Source of the DNA: a virus
Taxonomy: Duplodnaviria; Caudoviricetes
Strand: one strand, 5' to 3'
Virus record (IMG/VR): IMGVR_UViG_3300009507_002699
Location: 1 to 62,223 of that record
DNA length: 62,223 nt
Shown here: positions 13,161 to 62,223 of the stretch, in pieces
Layout of the letters: every line of letters starts with the position of its first letter
Numbering within the stretch: position 1 is the first letter of the stretch
Program-made: the position numbers and the translations under genes
Notes under the pieces: model-generated
Databases searched by the model: none
What the model was told of the DNA's origin: nothing
What the model saw: only the letters and a program-made list of their open reading frames with translations

Positions 13161-13214
13161 AAATACGCACTTATCTAATAGTAATAAATACATGTAACAA
13201 ATAAGGAATGTGAT

Positions 13215-36041: not shown

Positions 36042-36065
36042 TAGTTATAATTAAAGGGTTGAAAC

Positions 36066-39519: not shown

Positions 39520-39855
39520 ATGGATCAGCGTCTAAAAAAAGCACTCGAACATGCAGATTATGTAACAACATTTAAGAATCAAAAACGTGTTCTACTAGAA
39601 AAATTTAATAAAGAATCTACAATATATTATGAAGGTGGGCAATATACTGCAACAAGAGAACTTATTGCAAGTATAAAGACTATTGACAGTCATATTTTTA
39701 TAGATAATAACAATATTCCTATCCGTATATTAAATAGAGGCGAATTCTACAATACTTTAATTGATGCGTATGAATCTGCATTAGAATCTTATAATAAAGA
39801 ATATCAAAAATTAGTAAAAAGTGAGCGTACTGTACAAGGAATTCTTGATGTCTAA
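39520..39855 (+). CDS. hypothetical protein
   Basis: 111 aa with a good RBS and promoter. No recognised catalytic motif. Confidence 0.7.
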   Translation: MDQRLKKALEHADYVTTFKNQKRVLLEKFNKESTIYYEGGQYTATRELIASIKTIDSHIFIDNNNIPIRILNRGEFYNTLIDAYESALESYNKEYQKLVKSERTVQGILDV

Positions 39856-41448: not shown

Positions 41449-41954
41449 TATTTGATAAAGATACTAGTAAAATAGTTGGTCTACAAAACTATACCCCCGA
41501 ATCGGAGTATTGTTTAGAGGTTACCGAAGATCAATATGTCGACTTTATAACTAATCCTGATAAGAAAGACAATTATATTGTTAAGTATGATCTTTCTCAA
41601 AAGAAATATGTAATGTTAGCATATGAACAACCTAAACTTACATATGATATTAAAGATGTAATATATCATATACCTAAACAAAGTGTAGGCGATTGTATTA
41701 TAAAACGTACAACTGAATGGAATATACTTGTTAATCTCAAAGAACAAATGTTATTAGACCCAAGACAAATGTGTAAATTTAGTATTACAAAAGCAAACGA
41801 CCCCCATTTACTAATTAGAACATTTGTTGCAACAGTAGAACAAATCACTAAAGGATATACAGTCCAGTTTGACTACGAAGAAGAGAGTGGCGATGTAAGT
41901 ATATATACGCCAAAGATTTTTGATACATACGGATTTATCGATGAAACAATTTAA
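41436..41954 (+). CDS. hypothetical protein
   Basis: 172-aa ORF overlapping both neighbours in the operon. Confidence 0.65.
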   Translation: MYWLIFDKDTSKIVGLQNYTPESEYCLEVTEDQYVDFITNPDKKDNYIVKYDLSQKKYVMLAYEQPKLTYDIKDVIYHIPKQSVGDCIIKRTTEWNILVNLKEQMLLDPRQMCKFSITKANDPHLLIRTFVATVEQITKGYTVQFDYEEESGDVSIYTPKIFDTYGFIDETI

Positions 41955-45588: not shown

Positions 45589-45799
45589 ACTAACATTGAG
45601 GCAGTTGCAAACTGAAAGTGCTAGAGCATTAAGCACTATGGAAGCAACTAATAATAACATATATCAGTTTAACAAACAAGCACATCATAACAGTCAAAAT
45701 TGGTATGTTGCTGTAATTGATTGGTACGTAAATCAATATGGAGATTTACCTAGCCGTGCAGGTCCCGGCAAGGATATTAAATTGGTATACGATGTATAG
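45575..45799 (+). CDS. small hypothetical protein
   Basis: 74 aa, overlapping both neighbours, just before the first radical SAM gene. Confidence 0.6.
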   Translation: MDISKLTLRQLQTESARALSTMEATNNNIYQFNKQAHHNSQNWYVAVIDWYVNQYGDLPSRAGPGKDIKLVYDV

Positions 45800-46874
45800 A
45801 TACGAAGACATAAGAGAAGTACATTTAGAAGTTACACAGAAATGCCAAGCGGCATGTCCTATGTGCGATCGTAATATGAATGGCGGCGCTGATAATCCGC
45901 ATATTACAAATGCTGAACTAAGTTTAGCAGATGCAAAACGTATGTTTAGTCCTGACTTTATTAAGCAATTAAATGTAATGTACATGTGTGGTAACTTGGG
46001 TGATCCTATTGTTGCAAAAGATACACTAGAAATATTTGAATATTTTAGAGAACACAATGATAAAATGTGGCTTAGTATGAATACAAATGCTGGAGCAAAA
46101 GATATCTACTGGTGGGCGAAACTTGCAGAAGTTATAGGGCGCAGAGGCGCAGTAATTTTTAGTGTTGACGGACTACGAGATACTAATCATCTATATAGAC
46201 AAAATGTAGTATGGGATAATGTAGAAAGAAATATGCAAGCGTTTATTGAAGCAGGCGGTAGAGCCCGATGGGACTTCTTAATTTTTGCACACAATGAACA
46301 TCAAGTTGAAGAAGCAGAAGCACTTGCTAATCAATGGGGGTGTGAAAAGTTTATTAAGAAAAAATCAGGTAGATTTATTACAAGTGATATTAAACCTAAA
46401 ACATCTCATCAAGCAGTAAACCGCAAAGGTGCAGAAACACAAAATTTAGCACAGCCTAAAGATGAAAAGAATAAAAATCTAGCATTACTAAAACAAAAAG
46501 AGATTGAAAAGTCTTATGGTAGTATGAAAGAGTATTTAGATAAGTGTTCAATAAATTGTAAAGTTGCAAAGCAAGGAAGTATCTTTGTAACAGCAGAAGG
46601 ACTTTTAATGCCATGTTGTTGGACTGCTGGACGTATGTACAAATGGTGGCATGAAGATCCGCGTGTAGAACAAGTATGGGATCATATCGATAATGCTGGT
46701 GGAAAGCAAGGCATAAGTATTATTGACAACGATATAAAATACGTAGTTAATGGAAGATTGATAGATAGTATTACTTCAAGTTGGCAAAAAGATAGTATTG
46801 CTAACGGTAAACTTGGTGTCTGCGCTCAAAAGTGTGGTAGTGAGTTTGATCCTTATGCGGAGCAGTTTAAATAA
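45792..46874 (+). CDS. radical SAM protein with C-terminal twitch/SPASM-like domain (type A)
   Basis: Start at ATG 45792. CQAACPMC, GNLGDP, FSVDG, C-terminal C...MPCC...CAQKC. Confidence 0.9.
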   Translation: MYRYEDIREVHLEVTQKCQAACPMCDRNMNGGADNPHITNAELSLADAKRMFSPDFIKQLNVMYMCGNLGDPIVAKDTLEIFEYFREHNDKMWLSMNTNAGAKDIYWWAKLAEVIGRRGAVIFSVDGLRDTNHLYRQNVVWDNVERNMQAFIEAGGRARWDFLIFAHNEHQVEEAEALANQWGCEKFIKKKSGRFITSDIKPKTSHQAVNRKGAETQNLAQPKDEKNKNLALLKQKEIEKSYGSMKEYLDKCSINCKVAKQGSIFVTAEGLLMPCCWTAGRMYKWWHEDPRVEQVWDHIDNAGGKQGISIIDNDIKYVVNGRLIDSITSSWQKDSIANGKLGVCAQKCGSEFDPYAEQFK

Positions 46875-47963
46875 ATGGATATTACACAGTTAAAAAAAGT
46901 AGAGTTAGAAATTACAAGTAATTGTAATGCGGCATGTCCAGGGTGTGCTAGAACAATAGCAGTTGCTAACGGTTCACTTGAGCCCCAAGGTGAAGATTTT
47001 ACACTTGATGATTTAAAAAGAATGTTTCCTCCTGGAAATTATACTGGTGTTGAATTTAAGTTCTGTGGAGTATTAGGTGACCCTGCAATACATCCGCAGT
47101 TTGCTGATATGTTAGAATACCTTTTAGAAAATGAAGGTATGTGTAGTATTAGTACTAATGGTGCTGTTGGCACAGCAGATATGTGGCGTAGATTAGGAGC
47201 ATTGTGCAAAAAATATCAAAAAAGATTTCATTTACACTGGTGTATAGACGGACACAAAGAAACTAATCATATCTATAGAGTAAACACAGTATGGAAGGTT
47301 CTTGAAAGAAATATGAATGCTTTTGTTGAAACTGTAGGCGAGTATACATATCGTGCAAAATGGGTGTATATTGTTTTTGATCACAATGAGCATGAAGTTG
47401 ACGCGGCTAGACAACACGCTGAACGTTTAGGATTTAATTTTGCAACTCGCACAGGAATGCGTAATAGTTTTCATCAATGGACTGCTCAAATTAAAAAGAA
47501 AGATCATGAAAAGAAAAAAGTTGTAACAACAACAAAGGTTATTACTACTACCGGCAAAAAAGAACACAGTAAGGTAGAACAAGTAAAAGAACTTGATAAG
47601 TTTATTGCTAACGAAAATAAAACAAAAGAAGAAACATTTAAAATTGTAAATTCAATACAATGCAAATATGTACATGAAGCAGAAATTTTTATAAGTGCTG
47701 ATCAAACCATGTGGCCTTGTTGCTTTCTTGCAGATTGGGGCAGAAAGAATAATGATAATATATTAGATAAACTTGCTGAATATGGTACTGGTTGGAATAG
47801 TCTTAAAGACAAAAGTGTTACTGAGATTATGCAACATCCTTGGTTTGAAAAAATTCTAGCAGATAGTTGGGATCCAAGTCATCCAAAACATTTAAAAAGA
47901 TGTATTAGAACTTGTGCGTATAACAAAGCCTATCATAACGAATTAATAGACGAGACAAAATGA
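46875..47963 (+). CDS. radical SAM protein (type A)
   Basis: CNAACPGC, GVLGDP, STNG, WPCC...CIRTC. Confidence 0.9.
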   Translation: MDITQLKKVELEITSNCNAACPGCARTIAVANGSLEPQGEDFTLDDLKRMFPPGNYTGVEFKFCGVLGDPAIHPQFADMLEYLLENEGMCSISTNGAVGTADMWRRLGALCKKYQKRFHLHWCIDGHKETNHIYRVNTVWKVLERNMNAFVETVGEYTYRAKWVYIVFDHNEHEVDAARQHAERLGFNFATRTGMRNSFHQWTAQIKKKDHEKKKVVTTTKVITTTGKKEHSKVEQVKELDKFIANENKTKEETFKIVNSIQCKYVHEAEIFISADQTMWPCCFLADWGRKNNDNILDKLAEYGTGWNSLKDKSVTEIMQHPWFEKILADSWDPSHPKHLKRCIRTCAYNKAYHNELIDETK

Positions 47964-48916
47964 GTTGGTCTAGCGAAACATTAGAATGGATAGACATTGA
48001 ACTAACTAGTTTTTGTAATATCAAATGCAAAGGCTGTTTTCGTGTACTGTCAGATTACAAAGATGACATACTTAATAAAACATATCTTGACTTAGATACT
48101 ATAAAAGAAAAGTTCCAAAAAGATATGTTTCCAAATATGAAGATTATTAATTTTTGCGGTAGTGTAGACGAGCCATGTAGTCATCCTGAGTTTCATGAAA
48201 TTATTAAACACTTTGCTAGTTGGGGATGTCATATTAATGTTGCTACTAATGGAAGTTTACGCACTACAAGTTGGTGGGAAAAACTAGCAAAAGAATTAAC
48301 ATGTAGTCATAGAGTGACTTGGGGTATAGACGGAAGTGATGAACTATCAGAAGTATACAGAGAAGGTTCAAGTTTTAAAAAAGTACAACAAAATTATAGA
48401 GCATTTATTGCCGCCGGCGGACAAAGTGTTTGGCAATTTATTAGTTTTGAACATAACGAGCATCAATTAGAAACAGCAAAGCAAATGGCCAAAGACGAGG
48501 GCTTTAGAGACTTCAAAACTATTATTAGTCATCGTAAAGATACTAAAACTATTAAGCATAAAAAAGCAAAAGCAGATCCTAATCCTGGAGAACGTGCATG
48601 TATCAGTTGTAAGTATGCAAATCAAAAACGTATTTTTGTAAATCATATGGGTAATGTAATTCCTTGTTGTCATTTGAATAGTAAAATGTTAGAATTTCCT
48701 GTAAGTGGTAAACACAAAGATAGATTTGAAGATATACTTGTTGAAAATGATTATATGAATGATATCAATCTAAAAAATGTTACATTAGATCAAGCAATGA
48801 ATAGCAAAGTGTGGCAAAGAATAAAAGATAGTTGGACTGATGATGTGCGTATACCTAAATGCGAAAGCACCTGTGCGGAAAAAATACGAGATAAATTTCT
48901 TAAGGAGAAGTTATGA
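47960..48916 (+). CDS. radical SAM protein (type A)
   Basis: CNIKCKGC, GSVDEP, ATNG, IPCC...CESTC. Confidence 0.9.
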   Translation: MSWSSETLEWIDIELTSFCNIKCKGCFRVLSDYKDDILNKTYLDLDTIKEKFQKDMFPNMKIINFCGSVDEPCSHPEFHEIIKHFASWGCHINVATNGSLRTTSWWEKLAKELTCSHRVTWGIDGSDELSEVYREGSSFKKVQQNYRAFIAAGGQSVWQFISFEHNEHQLETAKQMAKDEGFRDFKTIISHRKDTKTIKHKKAKADPNPGERACISCKYANQKRIFVNHMGNVIPCCHLNSKMLEFPVSGKHKDRFEDILVENDYMNDINLKNVTLDQAMNSKVWQRIKDSWTDDVRIPKCESTCAEKIRDKFLKEKL

Positions 48917-49572
48917 TTGTAAAAAACTCCCAGCAAGATATTATTATAGAAGAAGATGAAACAGTTAAAACTATAGGACTAAAAATTTCTGGTGGCGCCG
49001 ATAGTGCTATTGTTGCCTATATGTTATCAAAGTTTGTTGTAGAGGAACGTCCTCTTATTAAGATTTTGCCTATTACAACTACACTTGAAGAAAAACCATA
49101 TCAATTAAAATATGCCAAGCGTGTGGTAGAATTTTTAAAAAACAAGTTTGGCAATATATTTTTAGAACATCAAACTAATCATGCAGAGAACAGCACAGTA
49201 TATGTTTCAAAACAAGGTGAGTTAGTACAAGATTTAAGAACTACATACGATCTGAAAATTTTATATAGTGGTATTACTGCTAACCCACCTAAAGAAATAT
49301 ACAAACAATGGTTACCACACACAGGTCCTGTAGATAATAGAGATGGAAAAATATTTCCTACAATACGAGGAACTTCAAGGTTACCTTTAGTAAATATTGA
49401 TAAAAAAGGTGTTGCAGAACTTTATAATACACTAGGAGTTATGGATACATTATTTCCAATAACTCGTAGTTGTGAAGCATTAGCAAAAGATGAAGAGTAC
49501 CATATTGAAAAACATTGCGAAACATGTTGGTGGTGTCGAGAACGGTACTACGGATTTGGAAGATATAAATGA
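48913..49572 (+). CDS. QueC-like PP-loop ATPase
   Basis: ISGGADSA PP-loop, PLVNIDK, TRSC...HCETCWWCRER Zn-binding motif. Confidence 0.75.
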   Translation: MIVKNSQQDIIIEEDETVKTIGLKISGGADSAIVAYMLSKFVVEERPLIKILPITTTLEEKPYQLKYAKRVVEFLKNKFGNIFLEHQTNHAENSTVYVSKQGELVQDLRTTYDLKILYSGITANPPKEIYKQWLPHTGPVDNRDGKIFPTIRGTSRLPLVNIDKKGVAELYNTLGVMDTLFPITRSCEALAKDEEYHIEKHCETCWWCRERYYGFGRYK

Positions 49573-50609
49573 GTTGGCCAGCCAGTATAACCCAAATCAA
49601 AAAACTACAAATGGAAATAAGCAATTATTGTAATGCTAGATGTCCCGCTTGTGCTAGAGAAAAAAGCATAACTAACGATAATAAAAAGCATATTGGAATA
49701 AATGATACTTACGTAAGTTTAGAACAGTTTAAAAATTGGCTAGGCAACGACAGTTGGGATAGTTTGCGTTTAATTGATTTTTGTGGCAATTATGATGAAC
49801 CTACAACGAATCCAGACTTACTTGAAATCATAGAATGGATATTTACTTCTAAATTATTTAATGAGAATTTACAAGTTAACATTGCAACAAATGGCGGAAC
49901 ACGAGATAAAAAGTTTTGGTTAGAACTAGGAAAATTAAGTTCTGCTTACAAATTTACAAATACAGAGTATGATTATCTAAGTAGAATAAATGTCATTTGG
50001 GGCATAGATGGACTAGAAGACACAAATCATTTATATCGTATAAATGTAGACTGGAATAAACTACAAGAAAATTTTCGTACATACATATCAGCAGGTGGTA
50101 GAGCAAGTTGGCAATTCATATATTTTAAACATAATGAACATCAAGATGAGTTAGCAAAACAACGAAGTATTGACGAAGGGTTTGAACGTATAAAATTTAG
50201 AGGTACAAAATCTAGAGAACATAAAGTTGTAACACCAGGCACAGGCAAATACGAACTTGATACACAAAAAACTGTAAAAAAAATTGTGTGCAAAGCATTG
50301 CTTAGACCAAATTATCGTGGATTAGACTCAGGTCTTTATGTTACTGTTAAAGGACAAGTTCTTCCGTGTTGTTGGTGGGGAACTGAAGTACATCTAAATG
50401 ATCTTGACAAAAGTTACAATCTAAGTTATAATATAGATAACATAAATTTAAATAGTGGAAATAGTTTCCAGGAGATTCTAGACTCGCCTTGGTATAGTAA
50501 TCTACACGATACAATACAAACAGAAATATTTGATAAGTGTGTACACCATTGTAAAGACAATATTATAAGCACAATCAATAATCAGATGAACACAGGAACC
50601 TTAAAATAA
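49569..50609 (+). CDS. radical SAM protein (type A)
   Basis: CNARCPAC, GNYDEP, ATNGG, LPCC...CVHHC. Confidence 0.9.
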   Translation: MSWPASITQIKKLQMEISNYCNARCPACAREKSITNDNKKHIGINDTYVSLEQFKNWLGNDSWDSLRLIDFCGNYDEPTTNPDLLEIIEWIFTSKLFNENLQVNIATNGGTRDKKFWLELGKLSSAYKFTNTEYDYLSRINVIWGIDGLEDTNHLYRINVDWNKLQENFRTYISAGGRASWQFIYFKHNEHQDELAKQRSIDEGFERIKFRGTKSREHKVVTPGTGKYELDTQKTVKKIVCKALLRPNYRGLDSGLYVTVKGQVLPCCWWGTEVHLNDLDKSYNLSYNIDNINLNSGNSFQEILDSPWYSNLHDTIQTEIFDKCVHHCKDNIISTINNQMNTGTLK

Positions 50610-50620
50610 GTAGTTATATA

Positions 50621-52036
50621 ATGACAGATAAAGCAAATAAATACCCCTCAGAAACGTTCTGCTTATTGCCTTGGGTACATCTAAGTACCCGTCCTGACGG
50701 TAGTATGCGAGTATGTTGTACAGCAAACGCAAGTAGCGTAGGTCCTACTAATGACAAAGAGCATGGCGGACAAGTTGGCATTTTAAAAGACGAACAAGGA
50801 AGACCTAACAACTTAAATGTTAGTGATTTTGAAACAGCATGGAATAGTACCTATATGCGTAATGTGCGTAAACAAATGCTTAACGGAGAACAACCTCCTA
50901 GTTGTATTAAGTGCTACAAAGAAGAAGCCGCAGGACATAATTCAAAGCGTATGTGGGAAACACACTATTGGAGCCAGCGTGTTGATCTAGATAAAATTAT
51001 TGCAGACACAAAAGCAGACGGCAGTGTTCCTCCGCAGTTAGCATATATTGATTTACGTTTTGGTACTAAGTGTCAACTTGCTTGTGTTATGTGTAGTCCA
51101 CATGATTCAAGTGGATGGATCAAAGACTACAAAGCAATTTTTCCAGCAGTACAGGATGAAAGTCTTAAAGAAACAATGCAATGGAAAGATAAAGGAAGTT
51201 TTAACGGCAGTAGTTACAATTGGCACAAACAAAATCCTACATTTTGGACACAGTTTTATGAACAGATGCCTAGTATGCAACAAATTTATTTTGCAGGCGG
51301 TGAAAGTCTTATTATTGAAGAACACTACGAAATACTTGAACATGCAATTAAAATGGGTTATGCTAAAGATTTAGAACTACGTTATAATTCAAATGGTGTT
51401 GAATGGCGTGAAGACCTGTTTGACTTATGGAAAGAATTTAAATTAGTACGTTTTCATTATTCAATAGACAGCATTAAAGAAATGAATGATTATATTCGTT
51501 ATCCTAGTACATGGAGTAGACAAGAAGAAGTATTCCACATACTTGATAATGACACACCTAACAACACAGAAGTTACAGTTGCATGTGCAGTGCAGGCTCT
51601 GAACATTTATTACTTACCAGACTTTATACAATGGAAATTAGAACAAAACTTTAAGAAAATTAATATGTGGCCATTTGGCGCAGGTGCTATTAACTATCAC
51701 TTTGTATACCATCCCCCGCATCTTAATGTTAAAATTTTACCTAAATGGTTTAAAGAAAAGTGTCGAGAAAAATACGAAGCATGGTATCCGTGGTGGGAAG
51801 CAAATTGGGAAAAGGGTGTTCCAAGTTGGCACAAAGGCAAAGTTGATTATGATACATGGCGTAATGCTAGTTATGGTATTAGCAGATTAAATGGTATGCT
51901 ACAGTTTATGGAAAGCGAAGACTGGAGCAGACGTTTACCCGAAATGAAAGAATTTTTAGATCTTTGTGATAAGCAACGTGGCATTACGTTTGCAGAAACG
52001 TTTCCAGAGATGAAGGACATATTTAATGATATCTAA
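50621..52036 (+). CDS. radical SAM protein with N-terminal twitch domain (type B)
   Basis: N-terminal FCLLPWVH...VCC...CIKC, then CQLACVMC, AGGES and HYSID. Confidence 0.9.
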   Translation: MTDKANKYPSETFCLLPWVHLSTRPDGSMRVCCTANASSVGPTNDKEHGGQVGILKDEQGRPNNLNVSDFETAWNSTYMRNVRKQMLNGEQPPSCIKCYKEEAAGHNSKRMWETHYWSQRVDLDKIIADTKADGSVPPQLAYIDLRFGTKCQLACVMCSPHDSSGWIKDYKAIFPAVQDESLKETMQWKDKGSFNGSSYNWHKQNPTFWTQFYEQMPSMQQIYFAGGESLIIEEHYEILEHAIKMGYAKDLELRYNSNGVEWREDLFDLWKEFKLVRFHYSIDSIKEMNDYIRYPSTWSRQEEVFHILDNDTPNNTEVTVACAVQALNIYYLPDFIQWKLEQNFKKINMWPFGAGAINYHFVYHPPHLNVKILPKWFKEKCREKYEAWYPWWEANWEKGVPSWHKGKVDYDTWRNASYGISRLNGMLQFMESEDWSRRLPEMKEFLDLCDKQRGITFAETFPEMKDIFNDI

Positions 52037-53201
52037 GACGTATTGTCCATTGTTGTATATGCATCAATTCATTTCGTCAACAGGATATCCTACACCTTGT
52101 TGCCACGGATATGAAGAGGGAAAATCAGCATGGGAATTGGCAAAGTTTGAAAAGGGCATTACAACAGGTAGATACAATGTTATGCGTGAACAAATGAAGC
52201 ACGGTCATTGGCCTAGTTTTTGTAATAAGTGCAAAATTCAAGAAGAAAGAGGTACTATAAGTCATAGACAAATAGCACTTGAAAGGTTTGGATACACAGA
52301 AGAAGTAAAAATCAAATATCTTGACATTGCATATAGCAATAAATGTAATCTTGCATGTAGAATGTGTAAGCCATCAGATAGTGATAAGTTAGAAGAATTA
52401 TATAGAGGTCAAAAAGAACGTCCATCATGGATTGCCGGTAATTATAGAGATACTAATTATTATTCAGAAGAAAAAGTAGAATGGACTAAGCATCTTATTA
52501 AAGACGGACTTGAATTATTAAAAGTTACAGGTGGAGAGCCTACGGCTTGCAAATATTTTATGGGATTAGTAGAATGGATGATTGATAATAATTATGCTAG
52601 TAACATGGAATTACAACTTACAACTAATGGAACAAAGTTTAATAAACCATTAATTGAAAAACTATTAAAATTTAAGAAGGTAAAACTATTATTAAGTATA
52701 GACGGTACAGGAAAAGTATACGATTATATAAGGCATCATGCTTCATGGGAAAAAACTTACAGTAATCTTAAACTATTAACAGAAGAAACACAGTTTCAAT
52801 TACAAGTTGCATTAGTCGCATCTTTTTATAATGTTACAAATATTTTAAGTTTAATTGAAGAATGTAAAAAAATAGGAATAAGTGTATATACTGACCAAGA
52901 TTTAAAGCCTGAAAATTCTGAAATATCTCCACTTAATATCGATAGTAACATTAGAAATATATTGATTAAGCAAGCAGATATACTAGAAAAAGAGTACAAT
53001 TCTAAATCTATAGTAGATTATCATGCTAGACAGAGTGCAAAAGCATTACGTAATATTGCAACAAGTAATCCAGTAGAACCTCAGCGGAAACTTAGATTGC
53101 TACAAACGATACAAATACAAGATAAATTATACAAAACTAACTACAAAGATTTCCTACAAAAAGAACAAATAGAATATTTAGAAGGAGTACATAATGGATA
53201 A
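52026..53201 (+). CDS. radical SAM protein (type B)
   Basis: YCPLLYMH...PCC...CNKC, then CNLACRMC, TGGEP, TTNGT and LSIDG. Confidence 0.9.
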   Translation: MISKTYCPLLYMHQFISSTGYPTPCCHGYEEGKSAWELAKFEKGITTGRYNVMREQMKHGHWPSFCNKCKIQEERGTISHRQIALERFGYTEEVKIKYLDIAYSNKCNLACRMCKPSDSDKLEELYRGQKERPSWIAGNYRDTNYYSEEKVEWTKHLIKDGLELLKVTGGEPTACKYFMGLVEWMIDNNYASNMELQLTTNGTKFNKPLIEKLLKFKKVKLLLSIDGTGKVYDYIRHHASWEKTYSNLKLLTEETQFQLQVALVASFYNVTNILSLIEECKKIGISVYTDQDLKPENSEISPLNIDSNIRNILIKQADILEKEYNSKSIVDYHARQSAKALRNIATSNPVEPQRKLRLLQTIQIQDKLYKTNYKDFLQKEQIEYLEGVHNG

Positions 53202-55692: not shown

Positions 55693-56860
55693 TACATTAG
55701 ATTTAAAAACAGGCAACGTATTCCAAGTAACTTGGGATTTAGGCAGACGATGTAATTATGATTGTTCATACTGTCCGGTAACACGCCACGACAACTTTAG
55801 TCCACATGCTACGCTAGACGAACTAAAAGCAAATACAGATTTCTTGTATGAGTATATTGATACGTATATGCAACATCGTTCATACAAGCGTACTAGCATT
55901 GGTTTCACTGGCGGTGAGCCTACAGTAAACCCAAACTTTATTCCTTTTATGCAATATTTAAAAAGTGAATACGAAACCAAGTATCAAAGCAGATGGAGTG
56001 CAAACTTTGCACTTACAAGTAACGGTGCTATGGGACAAAAAATGGCACAAAAAGTAATGGAGAATTTTGCTCACATTACAGTAAGTTATCACGCCGAAAG
56101 TAATGAAAAACTAAAAAAACAAGTACGTGATAGAATATTACAATTTCACAAGGATGGTCCTGCACACAAAACAACAATGAGTATTAATGTTATGTTTCAT
56201 GCAGAACATTTTGATGAATGTAAAGAATTATGCGAATGGCTGGACGGGCATGAAATAAAGTATGTTCCGAGAGTCATTGGTGAAGAGCCTGATAGTAAAC
56301 CTAGTTTTGCACACAAGTACAATGATGAACAATTACAGTACATGCGAGATTTTTGGAAAAACAAAAATGCTAAACTAAACACTAAAAAGAAAAAAGAAGA
56401 AGAAGTTACTAAAGTACTAAGTGCGGCAGGAGAAAAAACTAGCGAAAAGAAAAAACTAGGACTTGTTGAAGGTCGCCCATGTTGCGGTAGTAGAGAAATG
56501 TGCTTGTCAAATAAGGGCGATAGTCGCAATGCTACCTTTGTAGACTTGCGTGAGTTTAAAGGTTGGCAATGTAGTGTTAACTTTTTCTTTTTACATTTAG
56601 AACAACAAACTGATCAAGTGTTCCATCATCAAACTTGTCAAGCACGGTTTGACGGTACTAGAGGACCAATAGGTAAAATAAGTGAAGGTAAACAAATTGT
56701 TGCAGATTTAGTCAAAAAGTTAGAAACAGATACAATGCCAACTATTACTTGCCCTAAACATGTTTGTGGTTGCGGATTATGTGCGCCTAAAAGTAAATTC
56801 CCAGAAAATTACAAAGAAGTTATGAAGAATCATTTAGTTCGTCCAGAGGTACTAGCATAA
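55682..56860 (+). CDS. radical SAM protein with Cys-rich C-terminus (type C)
   Basis: WDLGRRCNYDCSYC, TGGEPT, VSYH, C-terminal RPCC, GWQC and CPKHVCGCGLC. Confidence 0.9.
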   Translation: MSFDTLDLKTGNVFQVTWDLGRRCNYDCSYCPVTRHDNFSPHATLDELKANTDFLYEYIDTYMQHRSYKRTSIGFTGGEPTVNPNFIPFMQYLKSEYETKYQSRWSANFALTSNGAMGQKMAQKVMENFAHITVSYHAESNEKLKKQVRDRILQFHKDGPAHKTTMSINVMFHAEHFDECKELCEWLDGHEIKYVPRVIGEEPDSKPSFAHKYNDEQLQYMRDFWKNKNAKLNTKKKKEEEVTKVLSAAGEKTSEKKKLGLVEGRPCCGSREMCLSNKGDSRNATFVDLREFKGWQCSVNFFFLHLEQQTDQVFHHQTCQARFDGTRGPIGKISEGKQIVADLVKKLETDTMPTITCPKHVCGCGLCAPKSKFPENYKEVMKNHLVRPEVLA

Positions 56861-57648
56861 TGAAGATAGGAATTTTTGGAGATAGTTTTGCAGATAATAA
56901 AACTGGTGGAGAACCAATTTATCAAGAAACATCATGGCCGTCATTATTATCAAATAAGTTTGATGTAACTAATTACAGCAAGGCCGGTAGTGGTTTAGAA
57001 TATTCTTTAGAACAAATTTTCCTTCATGCTGACAAATTTGATAAAATAATTTTTGTGTCAACTAGTCCTCAGAGAATGATGATAAATGAAGATCATCATC
57101 ATAAACTTATACAAGATGAAGAAGATGATATGACTTTATGGCATCATATCCGTCCTGTTGATCTGCGCGAACGAAAAGTCAATGGTAAAGAAGATAAATT
57201 TTATAATATGGCTTTAAAAGTTGCACAGCAATATAGTGACCTTTTTGTTAAAAACGATCACCTTGATATGAGAGTTGCACTAATATGGAAAGCACTAAAG
57301 GCTCACTACGGCGACAAACTTTTATTATTATATATGGCAGTGCCTGAAACTGGTGGATATATAGGACAAAAATTTTTAAGAAGATATAATATTTGGCCAG
57401 ATAATGAAATGAGTCTATACGATATAACGGATTATGAGAATCAACTCATTTTTGGAAAAAATCCTTATAATCCTGAGTATGATCGACGTTCGTGTCATAT
57501 AACGCACTGGCATCATAATATGTTATATGAAAAAATGCTCCGCTGGATTCATAGTGGTGAATTTAGTTTAACAGCCAAAGATTTAGTAGAAATTAAACTT
57601 GAAGAAATATTTGAAATGTACCATGGACCGTGGATTAAAAAAATATAA
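56860..57648 (+). CDS. SGNH/GDSL hydrolase-like protein
   Basis: IFGDSF (block I), NYSKAGSG (block II) and DRRSCHI (candidate catalytic His). Confidence 0.65.
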   Translation: MKIGIFGDSFADNKTGGEPIYQETSWPSLLSNKFDVTNYSKAGSGLEYSLEQIFLHADKFDKIIFVSTSPQRMMINEDHHHKLIQDEEDDMTLWHHIRPVDLRERKVNGKEDKFYNMALKVAQQYSDLFVKNDHLDMRVALIWKALKAHYGDKLLLLYMAVPETGGYIGQKFLRRYNIWPDNEMSLYDITDYENQLIFGKNPYNPEYDRRSCHITHWHHNMLYEKMLRWIHSGEFSLTAKDLVEIKLEEIFEMYHGPWIKKI

Positions 57649-57649
57649 T

Positions 57650-58747
57650 ATGGATAAATCTTTTAAATATGCCTGTCCGTTACCATTTAATCATATGGCT
57701 GTTAGACCCGACGGTAAAATATTACCATGTTGTGTTTTCAGATGGGACGATGTACCACAAGATTTAAATATTGATTACAAGGATCCTTTCAATCATCCTT
57801 TTATGAAAAATCTTAGGGACAAAATGTCTAAAGATGTTTATGTCGAAGGATGCAAAGAATGTTATCAAAAAGAAGAGTTTGGTAATCAAAGTTTTAGAAA
57901 ACTTGTACTAGACAAGCATCAAGAATTTGGTGCTACTAGTTTAGTAGAAGGAACACCACCAGAACTTACATATGTAGATTTGAGTATCAGTAATACTTGT
58001 AATAATAAATGTAGAATGTGTAATCCAGGCCTTAGTACATCTTGGTATAGTGATGCAAAGAAGTTAGGTATAGAAATTCCTAAAGGGATTATTAAAAATC
58101 CTTTTATTGAAAATACTGACTTTAGTAAATTAAAATTTATTAAATTGCTAGGCGGAGAACCGCTTATGGAACAAAAGGCTATTAAGAAAATTTTAAAACA
58201 ATGTGATCTTTCACAGTTGCATATTCAACTTATCACTAATGGTACAGTAATACCTGATGATGAACTAAAAGGTATGTTAGAACATGTTAAGCGACTAGAA
58301 GTAAAACTTAGTATAGATGCATACGGAAAACTAAACGACTTTTTACGCAGTGGTAGTAAATGGGAAACTGTTGAAAAAACAGTAGATTGGTTTAAAGGAT
58401 TTGTTAATAAAAAGTTTTTAAGTATCCACAGCGTAGCAAGTATATACAACATTAATAAGTTAGACGAAATGGTCGAATACGCAAAGTCAAAAGAAATTTA
58501 TCACGAATATGTACCACTTGATGATGTTGATTACATGCAAACAAAACATTTACCTTTAGAGGCTAAAAAATTGTTAGCAGAGAAAATAGCAAGTAAAAAT
58601 TATAAATTTGGTGTAAGTTTAATTTATGAGTTAGAACAGCACGGAGATATTAACATATTCTTAAAACAAGATGCTATCATGAACAGTTTACGTACAGAGC
58701 ACTGGAAAGATTATAATCCTGAATTATTTGAATTGACAAAACTATAA
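57650..58747 (+). CDS. radical SAM protein (type B)
   Basis: Start at ATG 57650. ACPLPFNH...PCC...CKEC, then CNNKCRMC, LGGEP and ITNGT. Confidence 0.9.
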   Translation: MDKSFKYACPLPFNHMAVRPDGKILPCCVFRWDDVPQDLNIDYKDPFNHPFMKNLRDKMSKDVYVEGCKECYQKEEFGNQSFRKLVLDKHQEFGATSLVEGTPPELTYVDLSISNTCNNKCRMCNPGLSTSWYSDAKKLGIEIPKGIIKNPFIENTDFSKLKFIKLLGGEPLMEQKAIKKILKQCDLSQLHIQLITNGTVIPDDELKGMLEHVKRLEVKLSIDAYGKLNDFLRSGSKWETVEKTVDWFKGFVNKKFLSIHSVASIYNINKLDEMVEYAKSKEIYHEYVPLDDVDYMQTKHLPLEAKKLLAEKIASKNYKFGVSLIYELEQHGDINIFLKQDAIMNSLRTEHWKDYNPELFELTKL

Positions 58748-58761
58748 AAGGGTGCTATAAT
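58733..58761 (+). promoter_or_regulatory. consensus sigma70 promoter with extended -10
   Basis: TTGACA (58733-58738), 17 bp spacer, TATAAT (58756-58761) preceded by TGn. ATG at 58767. Confidence 0.85.
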
Positions 58762-58766
58762 AAATT

Positions 58767-59879
58767 ATGAATGAAGATTTAAAATGGTCGAACTATGACT
58801 TTACTAAAATACCATTTGACGACATTGTCGCTGTGGGTCAACGTACTCTGCTTTATCGCGATCTATTTACTGTATCCTGGCTCTTGGGAAGATTCTGTAA
58901 CTACAGATGCTCCTACTGTTGGCCCTATGCACGTTCCGATCGTAAAGACCATAGACCTACCGAGTTATGCTTGCGAACAGTGGATGAAATCAAACGTCAA
59001 GCCAGAGACAACGGTTTTAACAGTTTCCACTTCTCCTTGTCGGGAGGAGAGCCTACTTTCCATCCTGGATACTTGGATATACTAAAACATCTTAGTGACG
59101 ATGTAGAAAATACAAATTACACAAGTGTACACATGACTAGTAATTGTAGTCGTCCAATGAAGTGGTTTGAAACATATGTTGAATATGCAAAGCCTTTTCA
59201 CAGAGCAAGTATAACAGCAAGTCTGCATACCGAACACGTAAATAGTAAAGAGAAGATGCAAGACTTTGCAGACAAGTTAATCTTCTGTCAGGAGCATGAT
59301 GTACAAGTTACAATTAATCAAGTTATGGTACCAGAATGGTTTGAACGTGATTGGGAAAATGCATTATTCTTTCACGAACAAGGTATCAACGTTACTCTTA
59401 AACCACAATCAGACCCTACTGCTTCTAGAGTTGTTGATGGGTACAAAGAAGAAGATCTTAAGAAACTCTACAACGGAATGCCACAACGGGCGTACACAGA
59501 AAGCAAACGTAAATGGGCAAGTCGACCAAAACCGTCTTTCCAAGTACCTCAAGGAGTAGAGGGTAAAATGGATACTAGTATACCTTGGCATATGCAAGTT
59601 GAAATGGAAGACTCTAAAGGCAATAAGTACTATATGGACCAAGCAGAACGGTTTAATGCCTTTAATTTCAATAATTTCGAAGGATGGCGGTGTAATGCCG
59701 GTTACAGCGGACTTATAATACGCGAGCCAGACGGTTCGGTAAAAAGGAGTTATTCGTGTCACGATGCGCCACTAGGCAACATCGAAACAGGTTTCGAACT
59801 GTTTAAGACACCTAAAACTTGTATTACAAAAAGTTGTGTAAGTTCTGCTGATAGTAAAATTCCAAAAAGGAAAGTGTAA
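58767..59879 (+). CDS. radical SAM protein (type C)
   Basis: WLLGRFCNYRCSYC, SGGEPT, ASLH, C-terminal GWRCNAG, SC and CITKSC. Confidence 0.9.
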   Translation: MNEDLKWSNYDFTKIPFDDIVAVGQRTLLYRDLFTVSWLLGRFCNYRCSYCWPYARSDRKDHRPTELCLRTVDEIKRQARDNGFNSFHFSLSGGEPTFHPGYLDILKHLSDDVENTNYTSVHMTSNCSRPMKWFETYVEYAKPFHRASITASLHTEHVNSKEKMQDFADKLIFCQEHDVQVTINQVMVPEWFERDWENALFFHEQGINVTLKPQSDPTASRVVDGYKEEDLKKLYNGMPQRAYTESKRKWASRPKPSFQVPQGVEGKMDTSIPWHMQVEMEDSKGNKYYMDQAERFNAFNFNNFEGWRCNAGYSGLIIREPDGSVKRSYSCHDAPLGNIETGFELFKTPKTCITKSCVSSADSKIPKRKV

Positions 59880-60535
59880 TGGAATATAAGGAACTTATTG
59901 AAACCCGTCAGAATCATTTTACATGGGACTATTCAAAAGAAGTTCCTAAAGAAGATATAGTAGAAGTATTTGAAGAAGTATATTTAAATGTGCCTACAAA
60001 AAATCTTATGTATCCCTATGAAGTTACTTTATATAAAAATAGTGATCTGGAAAAGCGCAAAGAAATTATGTCTGTTTGTCATAGGAATATGGATCATGAT
60101 ATAGAAAGAGATCGAGGAAACCCCCAAGTATTAGCACCTTGGCTTGTAGGTATCGGCCAACGTAATGTAGTAGATTTAGAAACTAGATATGATCCTGTGT
60201 ATAGGCGTCCTGTTCCTTGGGTTGATAGAATGGATGCTTTTGAAGCAGGTATATTGTCAACATATATTATGCTCGGTTTACAAAATCGTGGATACAATAC
60301 AGGAATAAGTCAAAACTGTTGTAATGATCCTCAACGAACTGCTGAACTTATAAATGCTAGTATGCCTACTATATTTCTTATAGGTATTGGGTACGGAACA
60401 AATGATGAAACATATTTAGATCCAAGAACTGACACAATTAAGCAAGTACCATTTACTATAGATGTAGTTAGACCAAGTAGAGAACGTAAGAAAACAGAAG
60501 GCACCCCAAGTTTTACAGATGTATTCAAACTATGA
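59879..60535 (+). CDS. nitroreductase-family flavoprotein
   Basis: YKELIETRQNHFTW...VPTKNLMYPY N-terminal pattern, GNPQVLAPWL, GYNTG and IGIGYG. Confidence 0.65.
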   Translation: MEYKELIETRQNHFTWDYSKEVPKEDIVEVFEEVYLNVPTKNLMYPYEVTLYKNSDLEKRKEIMSVCHRNMDHDIERDRGNPQVLAPWLVGIGQRNVVDLETRYDPVYRRPVPWVDRMDAFEAGILSTYIMLGLQNRGYNTGISQNCCNDPQRTAELINASMPTIFLIGIGYGTNDETYLDPRTDTIKQVPFTIDVVRPSRERKKTEGTPSFTDVFKL

Positions 60536-61242
60536 GAACACAAGAACAAATAACAGCAATCAAGAATACACAAAGTGATCCTAAGCAACATTGGGATATT
60601 TTAAACTACGGAAATATTATGGATCTGTTAACACACTATAATGATTCTAGTAAAAAAGTAGAACAAAAAACTACAGGACCTAAAGTACTTTATGTTAAAG
60701 AAGGTGAAGGTGTAATAGATGATATTTTACAAAAACTAAGAAAAATTTACGGAGAGTTTGGAGTACGTTCTGCACATTATTTTGATGTAACTAAACCACA
60801 CATAATACACAATGATGACGACTTTGATTATCCGCAGTGTTACAAAGCATTTGTAATACCATTACTTGTAGAAGGTACTACATGTGACAAAGCAAAGTTT
60901 TTTGTATTTGATCAAAGTTACTACGGCGGTCCTGCAAAGTTTGTTAACGGCGAAGATGTAACAGGTAAGCCGGTACACTATAATACATTTTTAACAGATT
61001 ATAAAGATGTAGAAGACAAAGCAATTTGTGGATTAGATGATTTTGAATTACAACACCTTACACATCTCAAATCCAAATGGCTAGAAGGTTTAAGTGTTAA
61101 CAAGTATTTTGATTGGCGCATTGGAAGCGTTATATCTTTTGATAGTCTAAATTTACATTGTTCGAGTGACTTTAATGCATCGGGTATTACACGCAAAATT
61201 GGACTCAGTATTTTTACAGAGAAATATGATGCCGCAGTGTAA
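60532..61242 (+). CDS. putative 2OG-Fe(II) oxygenase-like (DSBH) protein
   Basis: IIHND (HxD), FVIPL strand, WRIGSVISFDSLNLHCS (distal His) and a following basic residue. Confidence 0.5.
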   Translation: MRTQEQITAIKNTQSDPKQHWDILNYGNIMDLLTHYNDSSKKVEQKTTGPKVLYVKEGEGVIDDILQKLRKIYGEFGVRSAHYFDVTKPHIIHNDDDFDYPQCYKAFVIPLLVEGTTCDKAKFFVFDQSYYGGPAKFVNGEDVTGKPVHYNTFLTDYKDVEDKAICGLDDFELQHLTHLKSKWLEGLSVNKYFDWRIGSVISFDSLNLHCSSDFNASGITRKIGLSIFTEKYDAAV

Positions 61243-62221
61243 TGCTTTAAAAAATCATTTGTGTATAAGTGTAGATGGAAACTTTCTACCTTGCTGTCGT
61301 TATAGTAAAAATGATCAAAGGTTTCATGTAAATGATTACACATTTGATGAATATCGCAACACAGATTTTTATAATAACATTATATCTAATATGGAAAGCG
61401 GTTGGGATGAAGGTTGTCTAAAATGTAAAAAAGAAGAAGACATGGCCACTAAGTCTAGTATGCGGCAACGACTAAACAAAGACTTTAGTGGTAGCAATAT
61501 AGAGTTTATTGAAATTAGTATTAGTAATAAATGTAATATCACTTGTAGAATGTGTGGTCCTAAGTTTAGTAGTAAGTGGGCTGAAATAGATAATGTTGAA
61601 GTAGAAAAACAAAACTATAGCACTTTGTTAGACACTATAGATTTCTCTACTGTAAAGCGTATAAAATATTTAGGCGGAGAACCGTTTATTACTCCAGAGT
61701 TTAAAGAACTTATAGACAGGGTTACTAATAAGGAAAATGTTGATTTACAAGTAAACACTAATGCAACATTTTTTCCAAATAAGTACATAAACGAATTAGC
61801 AAAATTCAAAAATATGTATGTTGCTTTGAGTATAGATGGTATAGGCAAAGTTGACGAATACATTAGACAAGGCACTGATTGGAATAAAAAATTATCTGTA
61901 ATCAAACAATGGCTAGATACAGACTTTACATTGTACATCCATACAGTTGTTCAAGCATACAACATACACGATATAAAGAATATAAAAGCATTTGCAGACG
62001 AAAATAATTTACATTGGTCTCCTGCTGTGATTGATTCTCCTAAAGAATTTCAATTACATGCACTTGATAAAGATTATGTTGACCAGATTAAAGACGATGA
62101 TAATGCAGTGTTTTTAAATACGATAAGTAGTTATAGTGAAGATCTTAATAAAAAGTTCAAATCAACTACTGAACGATTAGATAAATTGTTTGATACAAAG
62201 TGGGAAGACATTGTTAAATGA
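61226..62221 (+). CDS. radical SAM protein (type B)
   Basis: Start at ATG 61226. QCNALKNH...PCC...CLKC, then CNITCRMC, LGGEP and LSIDG. Confidence 0.9.
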   Translation: MMPQCNALKNHLCISVDGNFLPCCRYSKNDQRFHVNDYTFDEYRNTDFYNNIISNMESGWDEGCLKCKKEEDMATKSSMRQRLNKDFSGSNIEFIEISISNKCNITCRMCGPKFSSKWAEIDNVEVEKQNYSTLLDTIDFSTVKRIKYLGGEPFITPEFKELIDRVTNKENVDLQVNTNATFFPNKYINELAKFKNMYVALSIDGIGKVDEYIRQGTDWNKKLSVIKQWLDTDFTLYIHTVVQAYNIHDIKNIKAFADENNLHWSPAVIDSPKEFQLHALDKDYVDQIKDDDNAVFLNTISSYSEDLNKKFKSTTERLDKLFDTKWEDIVK

Positions 62222-62223
62222 TA

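Follow-up and report, generated by a model that had tools for sequence, protein, structure and literature searches.

Introduction

Clusters of genes for radical S-adenosylmethionine (SAM) enzymes have been reported in cultured and uncultured bacteriophages. Radical SAM proteins number 11 in the Campylobacter phage CP220 and 12 in CPt10, with an interchangeable five-gene module that is interpreted in the accessible text of Timms et al. (2010; PMC2853527) as a metabolic aid. For pelagimyophages, Zaragoza-Solas et al. (2020; PMC7029224) defined a host recognition cluster (HRC) with radical SAM cassettes, to which the accessible part of the paper devotes two sentences and ascribes no function. A cyanophage paper from 2025 (PMC12801897) reads, in its accessible part, a trio of radical SAM, 3-amino-5-hydroxybenzoate (AHBA)-synthase-like and amidinotransferase genes as antibiotic genes. 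In the present study, a radical SAM island was analysed in the IMG/VR record IMGVR_UViG_3300009507_002699 (Duplodnaviria; Caudoviricetes). The entire viral contig, which is linear, 62,223 nt long and has a CheckV completeness of 13%, is referred to as the window. An initial annotation of this DNA had described eleven radical SAM genes interleaved with tailoring enzymes at its end and had implied that phages offer no precedent for such an array; the radical SAM proteins of CP220 and CPt10 (PMC2853527) and the HRC cassettes (PMC7029224), as far as the accessible parts of these papers describe them, speak against that implication.

The island consists of a conserved core, namely the 1222-aa protein U1222, the small open reading frame (ORF) sP and the radical SAM enzymes A1, N1 and C2, inside a variable shell of more than 100 radical SAM subfamilies. 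Radical SAM enzymes are a main source of new enzyme chemistry, and most characterised members with SPASM or twitch domains act on peptides.

Composition of the radical SAM array

Between positions 45738 and 62221, 15 ORFs of at least 200 aa lie back to back on the + strand, mostly overlapping by 1-50 nt. A CxxxCxxC motif is present in 11 of the 15, one motif per + strand ORF, and the cysteine triads are intact in all eleven. The radical SAM ORFs start at 45738 (true start 45792), 46875, 47960, 49569, 50621, 52026, 53194, 55682, 57599, 58767 and 61166; all motifs listed in the initial annotation were located, and its description of eleven co-oriented, mostly overlapping ORFs is correct. As a control, open frames of at least 100 aa were inspected, and the motif was found in 11 of 23 frames within 45500-62223 vs 0 of 36 (15,647 aa) in the other 45 kb.

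Pfam Radical_SAM (PF04055; gathering cut-off 29.5 bits) matches all eleven proteins, eight of them above the cut-off, while A1 (28.1 bits), A2 (24.0 bits) and A4 (26.1 bits) lie just under it, by 1.4-5.5 bits. A GGE-type motif was also seen in radical SAM sequences of the island. The enzymes were named by architecture: in A-type enzymes a Cys-rich SPASM-like C-terminus comes after the radical SAM core, in N-type enzymes an N-terminal twitch domain precedes the core, and the C-type enzymes (C1 and C2) are characterised by CNYxCSYC and a Cys-rich tail of their own. The curated cut-off of 170 bits of the model NF033640 (N_Twi_rSAM) is passed by five of the eleven, N1 (416 bits), N4 (240.6), N2 (227.2), N3PP (211.3) and N5 (203.5), and is not reached by A1-A4, C1 and C2 (29.9-54.6 bits). 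Four N-terminal cysteines and CxxxCxxC are invariant in 11 aligned members of NF033640. With SPASM (PF13186, cut-off 21.5 bits), A3 (21.6), A4 (22.9), N1 (22.6) and N4 (22.8) score above and N5 (18.0) below; A1, A2, C1 and C2 are Cys-rich yet have no PF13186 match, and their auxiliary Fe-S domains are predicted from sequence.

Three of the radical SAM enzymes belong to the core. A1 (45792-46874, + strand; CQAACPMC) has a C-terminal Cys-rich SPASM/twitch-like region, N1 (50621-52036, + strand; CQLACVMC), with its N-terminal twitch domain, is the most conserved gene of the island, and C2 (58767-59879, + strand; CNYRCSYC) scores 53.3 bits with Pfam. A profile of N1 compared with PDB sequences returned SkfB (8.9e-9, over only 120 residues) and tetraether lipid synthase (1.9e-4) and no others; profiles of A1 and C2 gave no PDB match at E<=0.01. 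Among ten long N1 relatives that were scanned, eight contain two radical SAM stretches and SPASM domains in one polypeptide (tandem-duplicated units) and two contain TPR repeats.

Assignment to a known cofactor pathway, which the initial annotation had named as an outcome that would overturn its interpretation, was looked for with equivalog models and with scans of the neighbouring genes. All enzymes score below the cut-offs of the tested equivalogs; the highest scores, each set against its cut-off, are 60.6/284 for MoaA, 17.8/381 for PqqE, 47.9/515 for NirJ, 37.9/260 for QueE (Clostridial type) and 26.5/500 for AhbD. Pfam, NCBIfam and PHROG scans of the window found no partner genes of the molybdenum cofactor (Moco), pyrroloquinoline quinone (PQQ), heme d1, AhbC/D or QueE pathways. 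With all scores far under cut-off, a one-to-one match to the Moco, PQQ, heme d1 or queuosine pathway is thus not seen.

Conserved core and variable shell among phages

Searching IMG/VR with N1 gave 175 confirmed relatives, from which 80 loci with 82-96% identity were kept; 81 sources were used for clustering. All 80 kept loci have 2-13 radical SAM genes within 10 kb on either side, many loci being cut by contig ends. Whole related records have 7-14 Radical_SAM matches, nearly all in one cluster, and a record of 381,886 b (CheckV 100% complete) has 14, of which 13 lie at 252-271 kb. The 633 radical SAM proteins from the 81 sources form 107 clusters at 40% identity and 137 at 50%. The N1 cluster is present in 81 of 81 sources, by construction since N1 was the query, followed by A1 (73), C2 (45), A2 (35) and C1 (32); most of the others occur in fewer than 10 sources. 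Accessory families recur as well: PP-loop proteins in 46 sources, 2-oxoglutarate (2OG)-dependent oxygenase-like and nitroreductase-like proteins in 29 each, a family of 290 aa of unknown kind in 20, SGNH-like proteins in 15, Asp_Arg_Hydrox in 11, FA_desaturase in 10 and B12-binding radical SAM proteins in 9. In phages, the island always comes after fibre genes and a U1222 homologue.

Compared with the closest relative, identity along the island is mosaic: A1, A3, N1, C1, N4 and C2 are 94-96% identical, and A2, PP1, A4, N2 and N3PP 72-80%. The closest relative has two extra N-type genes and is without the SGNH gene. Its orthologue of N5 is the last radical SAM gene and is followed by eight more co-oriented ORFs. 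The window stops 2 nt past N5. The initial annotation had suggested that the array may run further; co-oriented genes do continue in the closest relative, but none of the eight carries a CxxxCxxC motif.

Local expansion of paralogues in situ was rejected. Paralogues inside the window are only about 20-35% identical to one another, which argues for cassette exchange rather than local duplication, and the cassettes have orthologues in other phages. A diversifying island next to fibre genes is supported, but the paralogue expansion that had been proposed initially covers only half of what was found: three of the enzymes are a core common to Bdellovibrionales and the rest represent a pool of cassettes exchanged between phages.

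The ratio of nonsynonymous to synonymous substitution rates (dN/dS) was 0.03-0.31 in every orthologue pair tested, which comprised 14 of the 15 island ORFs and U1222, N5 being unpaired (A1 0.05-0.18, A2 0.16-0.26, N1 0.05-0.12, C1 0.03-0.10). Accordingly, the genes are maintained by selection. Purifying selection together with the intact Cys triads indicates that the island genes are functional, and the possibility of mostly inactive enzymes, which had been raised as a potential refutation, does not apply to the pairs tested.

The lineage is abundant in the ocean: a single 90% cluster of N1 has 2014 member sequences, and 2225 proteins match N1 at E<=1e-5. Megablast of the island against 50,697 GenBank phage records gave no match, and tblastn of N1, C2 and A1 against the same records returned only 3, 2 and 4 records, respectively, with 20-26% identity.

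The fusion protein U1222 and the small ORF sP

U1222 (41920-45588, + strand) is encoded directly upstream of the island. Its 1222 aa comprise two homologous N-terminal domains with a DGD motif, a repeat array and a C-terminal domain. The domains were modelled with AlphaFold from alignments with cellular homologues, and the models were compared with known structures by Foldseek and VIA. According to these models, U1222 carries two GT-A-fold domains (about residues 13-302 and 335-555) and a class I SAM-methyltransferase-fold domain (about residues 1000-1222). The GT-A-fold model, with a predicted local distance difference test (pLDDT) value of 90, matched WrtF, SunS and the PBCV-1 protein A64R in Foldseek at E about 3e-4 (GT-A transferases 3e-4 to 5e-3) and reached VIA Z values of 9-11 to IspD, MobA, GalT and B4GALNT1 over 124-137 residues. 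The DGD motif is present in both copies, and its last D is invariant in 14 sequences. The C-terminal model (pLDDT 82, above 90 in the domain) matched NodS, Coq5 and CouO at E 1e-7 with template modelling (TM) scores of 0.50-0.57 and had at least 500 PDB matches at E<=1e-3; G74, W75, D97 and D99 are invariant. Profiles of both domains gave nothing usable against PDB sequences, and the C-terminal domain has no sequence-level family match, so that membership in a named methyltransferase family is not supported. The glycosyltransferases and the methyltransferase which the initial annotation had placed upstream of the island are therefore recovered as predicted fold-level domains of one 1222-aa protein, but the claim found no backing for the ORFs at 39821-41448.

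The repeat array of U1222 corresponds to tandem repeats at 43997-44715 with a period of 69 nt or 23 aa, 10.4 copies according to Tandem Repeats Finder and more by eye, the approximate consensus being NVHSLFRLLGEEHEDLRKAVVEE; the repeats are helical. Homologous proteins with the methyltransferase fold from other phages and from Bdellovibrionales have different helical repeats, in variable number, in the same place.

Between U1222 and A1, reading of the DNA revealed sP (45575-45799, + strand), which encodes 74 aa from a TTG start; its first 14 nt overlap the end of U1222 and its last 8 nt the beginning of A1. This arrangement moves the A1 start from 45738 to 45792, in agreement with the coordinate in the initial annotation. 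From these overlaps, U1222 appears to be translationally coupled to sP and A1 in phages. By tblastn, 67 of the 80 phage loci were found to contain sP, which in every case lies after the U1222 homologue and before the first genes of the island. An alignment of 16 sequences has 35 invariant columns and about 85% conservation per column; sP is conserved along its whole length and contains no Cys. There was no usable match in the Atlas, and hmmsearch at E<=1 found sP in no Bdellovibrionales locus and only in 4 phage-like contigs from metagenome-assembled genomes (MAGs).

A counterpart in Bdellovibrionales

A scan of one genome per prokaryotic species, seeded by an N-type alignment closer than the one with 11 members, led to 78 loci, of which 58 were analysed further. 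Most of the 78 belong to Bdellovibrionota, including closed chromosomes and one isolate. An N1 orthologue is present in 57 of the 58 cellular loci (52-61% identity), C2 in 46 (55-67%) and A1 in 45 (about 41-46%), and in Bdellovibrionales the three U1222 domains occur as separate genes beside N1, A1 and C2. A conserved small ORF was not found in the 58 loci, where the largest cluster comprises 4 loci. Judged by these orthologues, Bdellovibrionales chromosomes share the core without sP.

Three Bdellovibrionales genomes contain 7-9 NF033640 paralogues each vs 0 of 14 control genomes, and a Bacteriovoracaceae chromosome has a locus with ten radical SAM ORFs of the A-, N- and C-types in about 13-21 kb (7137-20331 of the locus), from which it follows that multi-radical-SAM islands are not limited to phages. 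The module is patchy: across the phylum, 4 of 151 sampled genomes have an N1 orthologue, and in the family of the isolate 2 of 101 do.

Glycosyltransferases are the only functional neighbours that recur around the cellular module: in a set of 140 representatives of neighbour clusters located up to 7 kb from cellular N1, Glycos_transf_2 leads the Pfam families (12/140), followed by class I methyltransferases (3). In one Bdellovibrio isolate genome, 6 of 10 scanned neighbours match glycosyltransferase families, and a 1355-aa fibre protein with Peptidase_S74 is encoded adjacently. The S74-like fibre protein was found in 3 of 58 cellular loci, and a general association with fibres in Bdellovibrionales is not supported.

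MAG contigs carrying N1 at 50-86% identity were binned to Flavobacteriales, Neisseriaceae, Rickettsiales, Gammaproteobacteria, Verrucomicrobiales, Chloroflexota and Acidimicrobiaceae. Some of them have a low GC content and encode sP together with 7-13 radical SAM genes; they look like mis-binned phage. Marine MAG contigs of this kind are also among the 78 loci, with sP and 11-13 radical SAM genes.

In a quick maximum-likelihood tree of N1 rooted with paralogues, the phage clade (32 rows; Shimodaira-Hasegawa-like approximate likelihood ratio test (SH-aLRT) support 100) and five phage-like MAG rows nest inside Bdellovibrionota. This nesting would fit a single transfer from predatory bacteria to phages. 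Support for the nesting nodes is only 85-93 and the branches to the outgroup are long, which makes the direction of transfer no more than suggestive.

Shell enzymes and accessory proteins

The remaining A-type enzymes are located between A1 and N1 on the + strand. A2 (46875-47963; CNAACPGC) belongs to the shell and follows A1 directly, A3 (47960-48916; CNIKCKGC) has a C-terminal SPASM domain, a Radical_SAM score of 35.3 bits and a cluster present in 22 of 81 sources, and A4 (49569-50609; CNARCPAC), also with a C-terminal SPASM domain, belongs to a cluster found in 10 of 81. Downstream of N1, likewise on the + strand, lie the N-type enzymes N2 (52026-53201; CNLACRMC; shell, cluster in 6 of 81 sources), N3PP (53194-55692; CNMACLHC; NF033640 match at residues 21-430), N4 (57599-58747; CNNKCRMC; cluster in 15 of 81 sources) and N5 (61166-62221; CNITCRMC), each with an N-terminal twitch domain. 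N5 is the last gene of the contig and has a 65% identical orthologue in the closest relative. C1 (55682-56860, + strand; CNYDCSYC) has a Cys-rich C-terminus, a Pfam score of 42.5 bits and matches to phrog_1802 and phrog_13987.

PP-loop domains with the motif SGGADS were found twice, in PP1 (48913-49572, + strand) and in the C-terminal third of N3PP, where the domain is fused to the radical SAM enzyme and ends in a CxxCxxC tail. PP1 is a predicted PP-loop ATP pyrophosphatase with scores above cut-off for Pfam QueC (24.2 bits) and NAD_synthase (23.7 bits), and the QueC match covers only the C-terminal 60 residues. Against the NCBIfam QueC model TIGR00364 the score is 19.6 bits at a cut-off of 150.3. 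PP1 can accordingly be described as a PP-loop ATPase with a QueC-like Cys tail, and not as QueC; the QueC-like ATPases of the initial annotation hold with respect to the two domains, but PP1 falls short of the QueC equivalog. The C-terminal part of N3PP matched TilS_N (E 0.0055) and the QueC-like phrog_1550 (E 0.0018). The fused form is present in 6 of 81 sources.

The nitroreductase-fold flavoprotein (59879-60535, + strand) was recognised with a profile of 14 homologues, which matched PDB entry 8cqt at E 6.8e-11 over positions 1-191 of 206 and in total 35 PDB sequences at E<=1e-3 and 58 at E<=1, while the single sequence reaches only E 0.062 in Pfam. The near-full-length family match thus backs the nitroreductase named initially. 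The product of 56860-57648 (+ strand) is a probable SGNH/GDSL-type hydrolase. It has no Pfam, NCBIfam or PHROG match; G7, S9, D61, R72 and H213 are invariant in 14 homologues, and the profile matched TesA/GDSL chains in the PDB weakly (E 0.014-0.06) and only with its first 40 residues, an N-terminal block. For the product of 60532-61242 (+ strand), a 2OG/Fe(II)-type oxygenase is possible: H93, D95, H209 and K222 are invariant, and searches of Pfam, NCBIfam, PHROG and PDB sequences gave no match. In the Atlas it falls among unnamed viral clusters, the nearest named family being DUF6445, which was seen in 27% of cluster members and is a weak lead. For these two proteins the initial assignments would agree with the invariant residues (G7, S9 and H213 in the hydrolase), but there are weak PDB matches, at best E 0.014, in one case and no family match in the other.

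Perfect sigma-70 consensus sites, TTGACA-17-TATAAT (12/12), occur at 58733-58761, upstream of C2, and at 50404-50432. The former ends 6 nt ahead of the C2 ATG, so that an mRNA with no leader or almost none would be expected. A perfect site lies within 15 nt of the start of the C2 orthologue in 15 of the 50 loci having one, and over the 81 sources 53 perfect sites are on the + strand and 8 on the - strand. The promoter and terminator scan of the window gave no excess over shuffled sequences (71 vs 88.9 and 6 vs 7.7, respectively).

Phage identity, genomic context and assembly support

The Rad50-like protein of the window is most similar to those of the jumbo phages PA5oct (48.8%), Phosso (47.6%) and Atu_ph07 (43.8%), which makes PA5oct/Atu_ph07 jumbo phages the apparent closest cultured relatives. 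No tRNA genes were found in the window. From the CheckV completeness values, different genome sizes follow within the lineage, of about 470-480 kb for the window (13%) and the closest relative (18%) as against about 355-382 kb for other related records.

Upstream of the island, Rad50/Mre11-like nucleases, a baseplate hub with a lysozyme domain, gp25 and an ORF of 4939 aa are encoded. The tail-fibre genes (32192-37544, + strand) match the phage tail Collar family of Pfam (4.3e-14) and the Peptidase_G2 autoproteolytic domain (3.8e-7), are co-oriented with the island and lie directly upstream of it; the baseplate genes sit further upstream. The single 4939-aa ORF at 16739-31558, which separates the baseplate genes from the fibre genes, could encode a giant fibre or a protein resembling VrlC. 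Three ORFs of 274, 268 and 172 aa at 39821-41954, between the fibre genes and U1222, are without family match, the only exception being a weak Mannosyl_trans3 match (E 0.024) of the 268-aa ORF; they are kept at 35-85% identity in many related loci.

Of the words sampled from 45738-55692, sixteen public runs each contain 95% or more, and at least part of this segment is present in 20 rows, which come from 8 studies. One run that carries no flag as a possible source yielded contigs, the longest of 4978 b, that are identical across 51649-56626 (N1-N2-N3PP-C1). Because other assemblies carry the same DNA and the contig encodes phage structural genes, misassembly and contamination by cellular DNA were ruled out. 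The viral nature of this DNA, as initially assumed, is therefore confirmed by the baseplate and fibre genes, by the viral contig and by independent assemblies alike. Contigs from RNA libraries (2 runs of 1 study) covered 28 and 24 of 30 bins with 0-18 differences per listed piece; as DNA can be present in such libraries, this coverage is at most a weak hint of transcription.

Possible products of the island

The best reading of the island is the tailoring of a glycoconjugate, for which we estimate a probability of about 0.42. After weighing the context for and against each explanation, maturation of a protein or peptide was placed second, followed by a diffusible product or a contribution to host metabolism and by DNA modification, with part of the probability assigned to none of these. 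If a glycoconjugate is tailored, the island would be the enzyme-rich part of a hypervariable HRC-type region in an uncultured marine jumbo myovirus. The core (U1222, sP, A1, N1 and C2) would act on a substrate that contains sugar, through a set of steps that stays the same. The shell, represented in the window by eight more radical SAM enzymes, two PP-loop ATPases, the nitroreductase-fold flavoprotein, the probable SGNH esterase and the possible 2OG oxygenase, would then diversify the product from phage to phage, with the QueC-like PP-loop ATPases possibly responsible for carboxylate activation and amidation. The product would most likely decorate a surface structure, either the fibres of the phage itself or the envelope of the infected cell. 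We infer the glycan or glycoconjugate substrate, the order of the steps and the target from context. An assembly line, virion fibres as its target and an arms race behind its diversity may likewise apply; of the proposals in the initial annotation, a glycan product appears to fit the context best, and the decoration of virion fibres is conceivable.

Several observations led to this reading. The GT-A- and methyltransferase-fold domains belong to the conserved unit, fused in phages and separate in Bdellovibrionales, Glycos_transf_2 is the commonest neighbour family in cells, and the phage island always follows fibre genes and a U1222 homologue. Furthermore, the analogous regions of CP220 and Mosig pair homologues of the A-type radical SAM enzymes with sugar enzymes, and the island is hypervariable, with its 107-137 clusters and mosaic identity, at the same time as its genes appear functional and reach no pathway cut-off.

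A number of findings weigh against it. The DegT, Glycos_transf_2 and Epimerase families have 0 matches in the window, where no nucleotide-sugar biosynthesis gene was found, and the complete relative has these families outside the island, apart from one weak DegT-like fragment. The GT-A match is at the level of the fold only (TM 0.3-0.43), with VIA Z values that do not separate nucleotidyltransferases from glycosyltransferases. Most of the SPASM/twitch radical SAM enzymes that have been characterised mature peptides. The only PDB sequence matches of the N1 profile are to SkfB and tetraether lipid synthase, and FA_desaturase and the LpxO-like Asp_Arg_Hydrox of related islands would also fit lipid or protein substrates. 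With a looser phmmer count, GT2-like neighbours were present in 17 of 58 cellular loci and the S74 fibre in 3 of 58, which renders the link to glycans moderate and the link to fibres in bacteria anecdotal. No product of the island has ever been observed.

Maturation of a protein or peptide, similar to that of ribosomally synthesised and post-translationally modified peptides (RiPPs), is rather unlikely by comparison. Radical SAM enzymes would here cross-link, epimerise, methylate or oxidise residues of a phage protein, for example a fibre, sP or the repeat part of U1222, the GT-A domain would be a protein or peptide glycosyltransferase, the PP-loop proteins would amidate, and the nitroreductase and the 2OG protein would oxidise. 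SPASM/twitch enzymes (SkfB, PapB, YhhB, WgkB, anSME) dominate the weak NCBIfam and PDB matches, the Foldseek matches include the peptide S-glycosyltransferases SunS and ThuS and the capsid-glycosylating A64R of PBCV-1, and TPR repeats in 2 of 10 long N1-family members as well as Asp_Arg_Hydrox genes in 11 related islands point in the same direction. A strongly conserved small ORF, sP, directly precedes A1, which would also fit. Against this explanation, sP is conserved over its whole length without Cys and is absent from Bdellovibrionales loci that keep N1, A1 and C2 and have no conserved small ORF instead. The repeats before the methyltransferase-fold domain differ in sequence between lineages, and Pfam, NCBIfam and PHROG scans of the window found no RiPP recognition element (RRE)/PqqD, protease or exporter.

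A diffusible small molecule or cofactor, made by a natural-product-like (e.g. nucleoside- or aminocyclitol-like) pathway, or a boost of host metabolism by auxiliary enzymes has a lower probability again. Many classes of tailoring enzymes are found together, amidinotransferase and aminotransferase genes are present in the CP220 and Mosig analogues, and the accessible texts on CP220 (PMC2853527) and on the cyanophage trio (PMC12801897) propose a metabolic advantage and antibiotic genes, respectively. The conserved position in the structural and fibre module, on the other hand, and an extreme cassette turnover that is more typical of surface-recognition loci than of metabolism are not expected for such a pathway; exporter, resistance or regulator genes were not recognised, nor was any cofactor-pathway cut-off reached.

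Hypermodification of DNA is the least probable of the explanations and appears very improbable. A modified base, 7-deazaguanine-like or a decorated pyrimidine, would be made and then glycosylated or methylated for evasion of restriction. Phages use radical SAM enzymes, glycosyltransferases and methyltransferases on DNA, and QueC-like PP-loop domains and weak QueE-like PHROG matches of C1 and C2 would agree with this explanation. However, the equivalog scores fall far short (QueC 19.6 vs 150.3, QueE 37.9 vs 260), Pfam and NCBIfam scans found no nucleotide-metabolism or DNA-binding gene in the island, and the cellular counterpart sits among GT2 genes. None of 5 related records, one of them 100% complete according to CheckV, gave a TGT/DpdA family match, and together with the glycosyltransferase context this argues against DNA as the substrate.

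Returning to glycoconjugate tailoring, a more far-reaching version can be formulated, which is unlikely as a whole. The conserved unit of GT-A-fold, methyltransferase-fold, A1, N1 and C2 would be an undescribed radical-SAM-dependent pathway for a new class of modified sugars or glycoconjugates that decorate fibres or surfaces of jumbo phages and Bdellovibrio-like bacteria, and the more than 100 shell subfamilies would constitute a combinatorial, C-H-functionalising sugar chemistry driven by arms races over host recognition.

Comparison with known systems

At the level of single enzymes, five of the eleven are members of NF033640; this is a subfamily model without an assigned reaction, in which the A- and C-types reach about 30-55 bits. 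With SkfB, anSME, BtrN, MoaA, PqqE and NirJ, the enzymes share a radical SAM core and an auxiliary Cys-rich Fe-S domain, whereas their equivalog scores are far under cut-off and the auxiliary domain of the N-types is N-terminal.

At the level of the locus, the HRC of pelagimyophages is described in the accessible part of PMC7029224 as a hypervariable island in the structural module beside the tail fibres, with radical SAM cassettes that differ between close relatives, and the island shares these features. The order in the window is fibre genes (32192-37544), U1222 and radical SAM island, with content that varies among the 80 loci. Judged by content and position, and setting aside the VrlC/gp14 flank markers of that paper, the region can be regarded as a pelagimyophage-type HRC. 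The annotated region of Pelagibacter phage Mosig EXVC030M, between tail fibres and VrlC, contains three MoaA-like genes, a sugar aminotransferase, a carbamoyltransferase, an epimerase, nitroreductases, Asp_Arg_Hydrox and FA_desaturase. Common to the HRC of Mosig and the related islands studied here is that nitroreductase, Asp_Arg_Hydrox, FA_desaturase, methyltransferase and sugar enzymes accompany radical SAM genes. The A-type enzymes are 23-31% identical to Mosig_00084, and the methyltransferase-fold domain of U1222 is 28% identical to Mosig_00090. In contrast, the backbones differ: the Rad50-like protein of the window is nearest to those of PA5oct, Phosso and Atu_ph07 (44-49%), by which the phage does not count among the pelagimyophages, related records are up to 382 kb long, and Mosig has 3 annotated radical SAM genes vs 11 in the window. 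Tblastn of N1 and C2 against the 50,697 GenBank phage records returned no Pelagibacter phage. In a related jumbo-phage locus, FA_desaturase (19562-20212 of the locus) is 68% identical over 210 aa to Mosig_00080 of this SAR11 myophage, which points to a shared gene pool and possibly to a shared host group.

In the annotated CP220 region, next to baseplate genes, five radical SAM genes occur together with genes for two nucleotide-diphospho-sugar transferase proteins, an amidinotransferase and a PAP2 phosphatase. A-type enzymes of the window can be aligned with gp080, gp083 and gp084 (23-27% identity, E values as low as 3e-26), A3 being 27% identical to gp084 over 294 aa. CP220 and CPt10 differ in being T4-like 178-kb phages of a gut bacterium. 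No Campylobacter phage was returned by tblastn of N1 against the phage collection; against the 18.5-kb CP220 region, U1222 gave nothing at E<=1e-3 and N5 only a match of 49 aa at E 0.001.

Overall, an abundant lineage of ocean phages swaps more than 100 radical SAM subfamilies around a fixed core, none of them with an assigned reaction or a likeness to a known pathway, and the presence of the core in at least one cultured Bdellovibrio isolate provides a tractable entry to a system otherwise known from metagenomes only. Should fibres or the cell envelope carry the product as a decoration, this would represent a new layer of host-range determination in marine phages, and the same explanation could extend to the radical SAM cassettes of pelagimyophages and Campylobacter phages. 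The literature searched contains no report of the core/shell structure, sP, the U1222 fusion or the Bdellovibrionales counterpart. This kind of island has thus been noticed twice before, in CP220 and in the pelagimyophage HRC, each time without explanation, and the conserved core with its variable shell, sP, the U1222 fusion and the link to Bdellovibrionales are the features added here.

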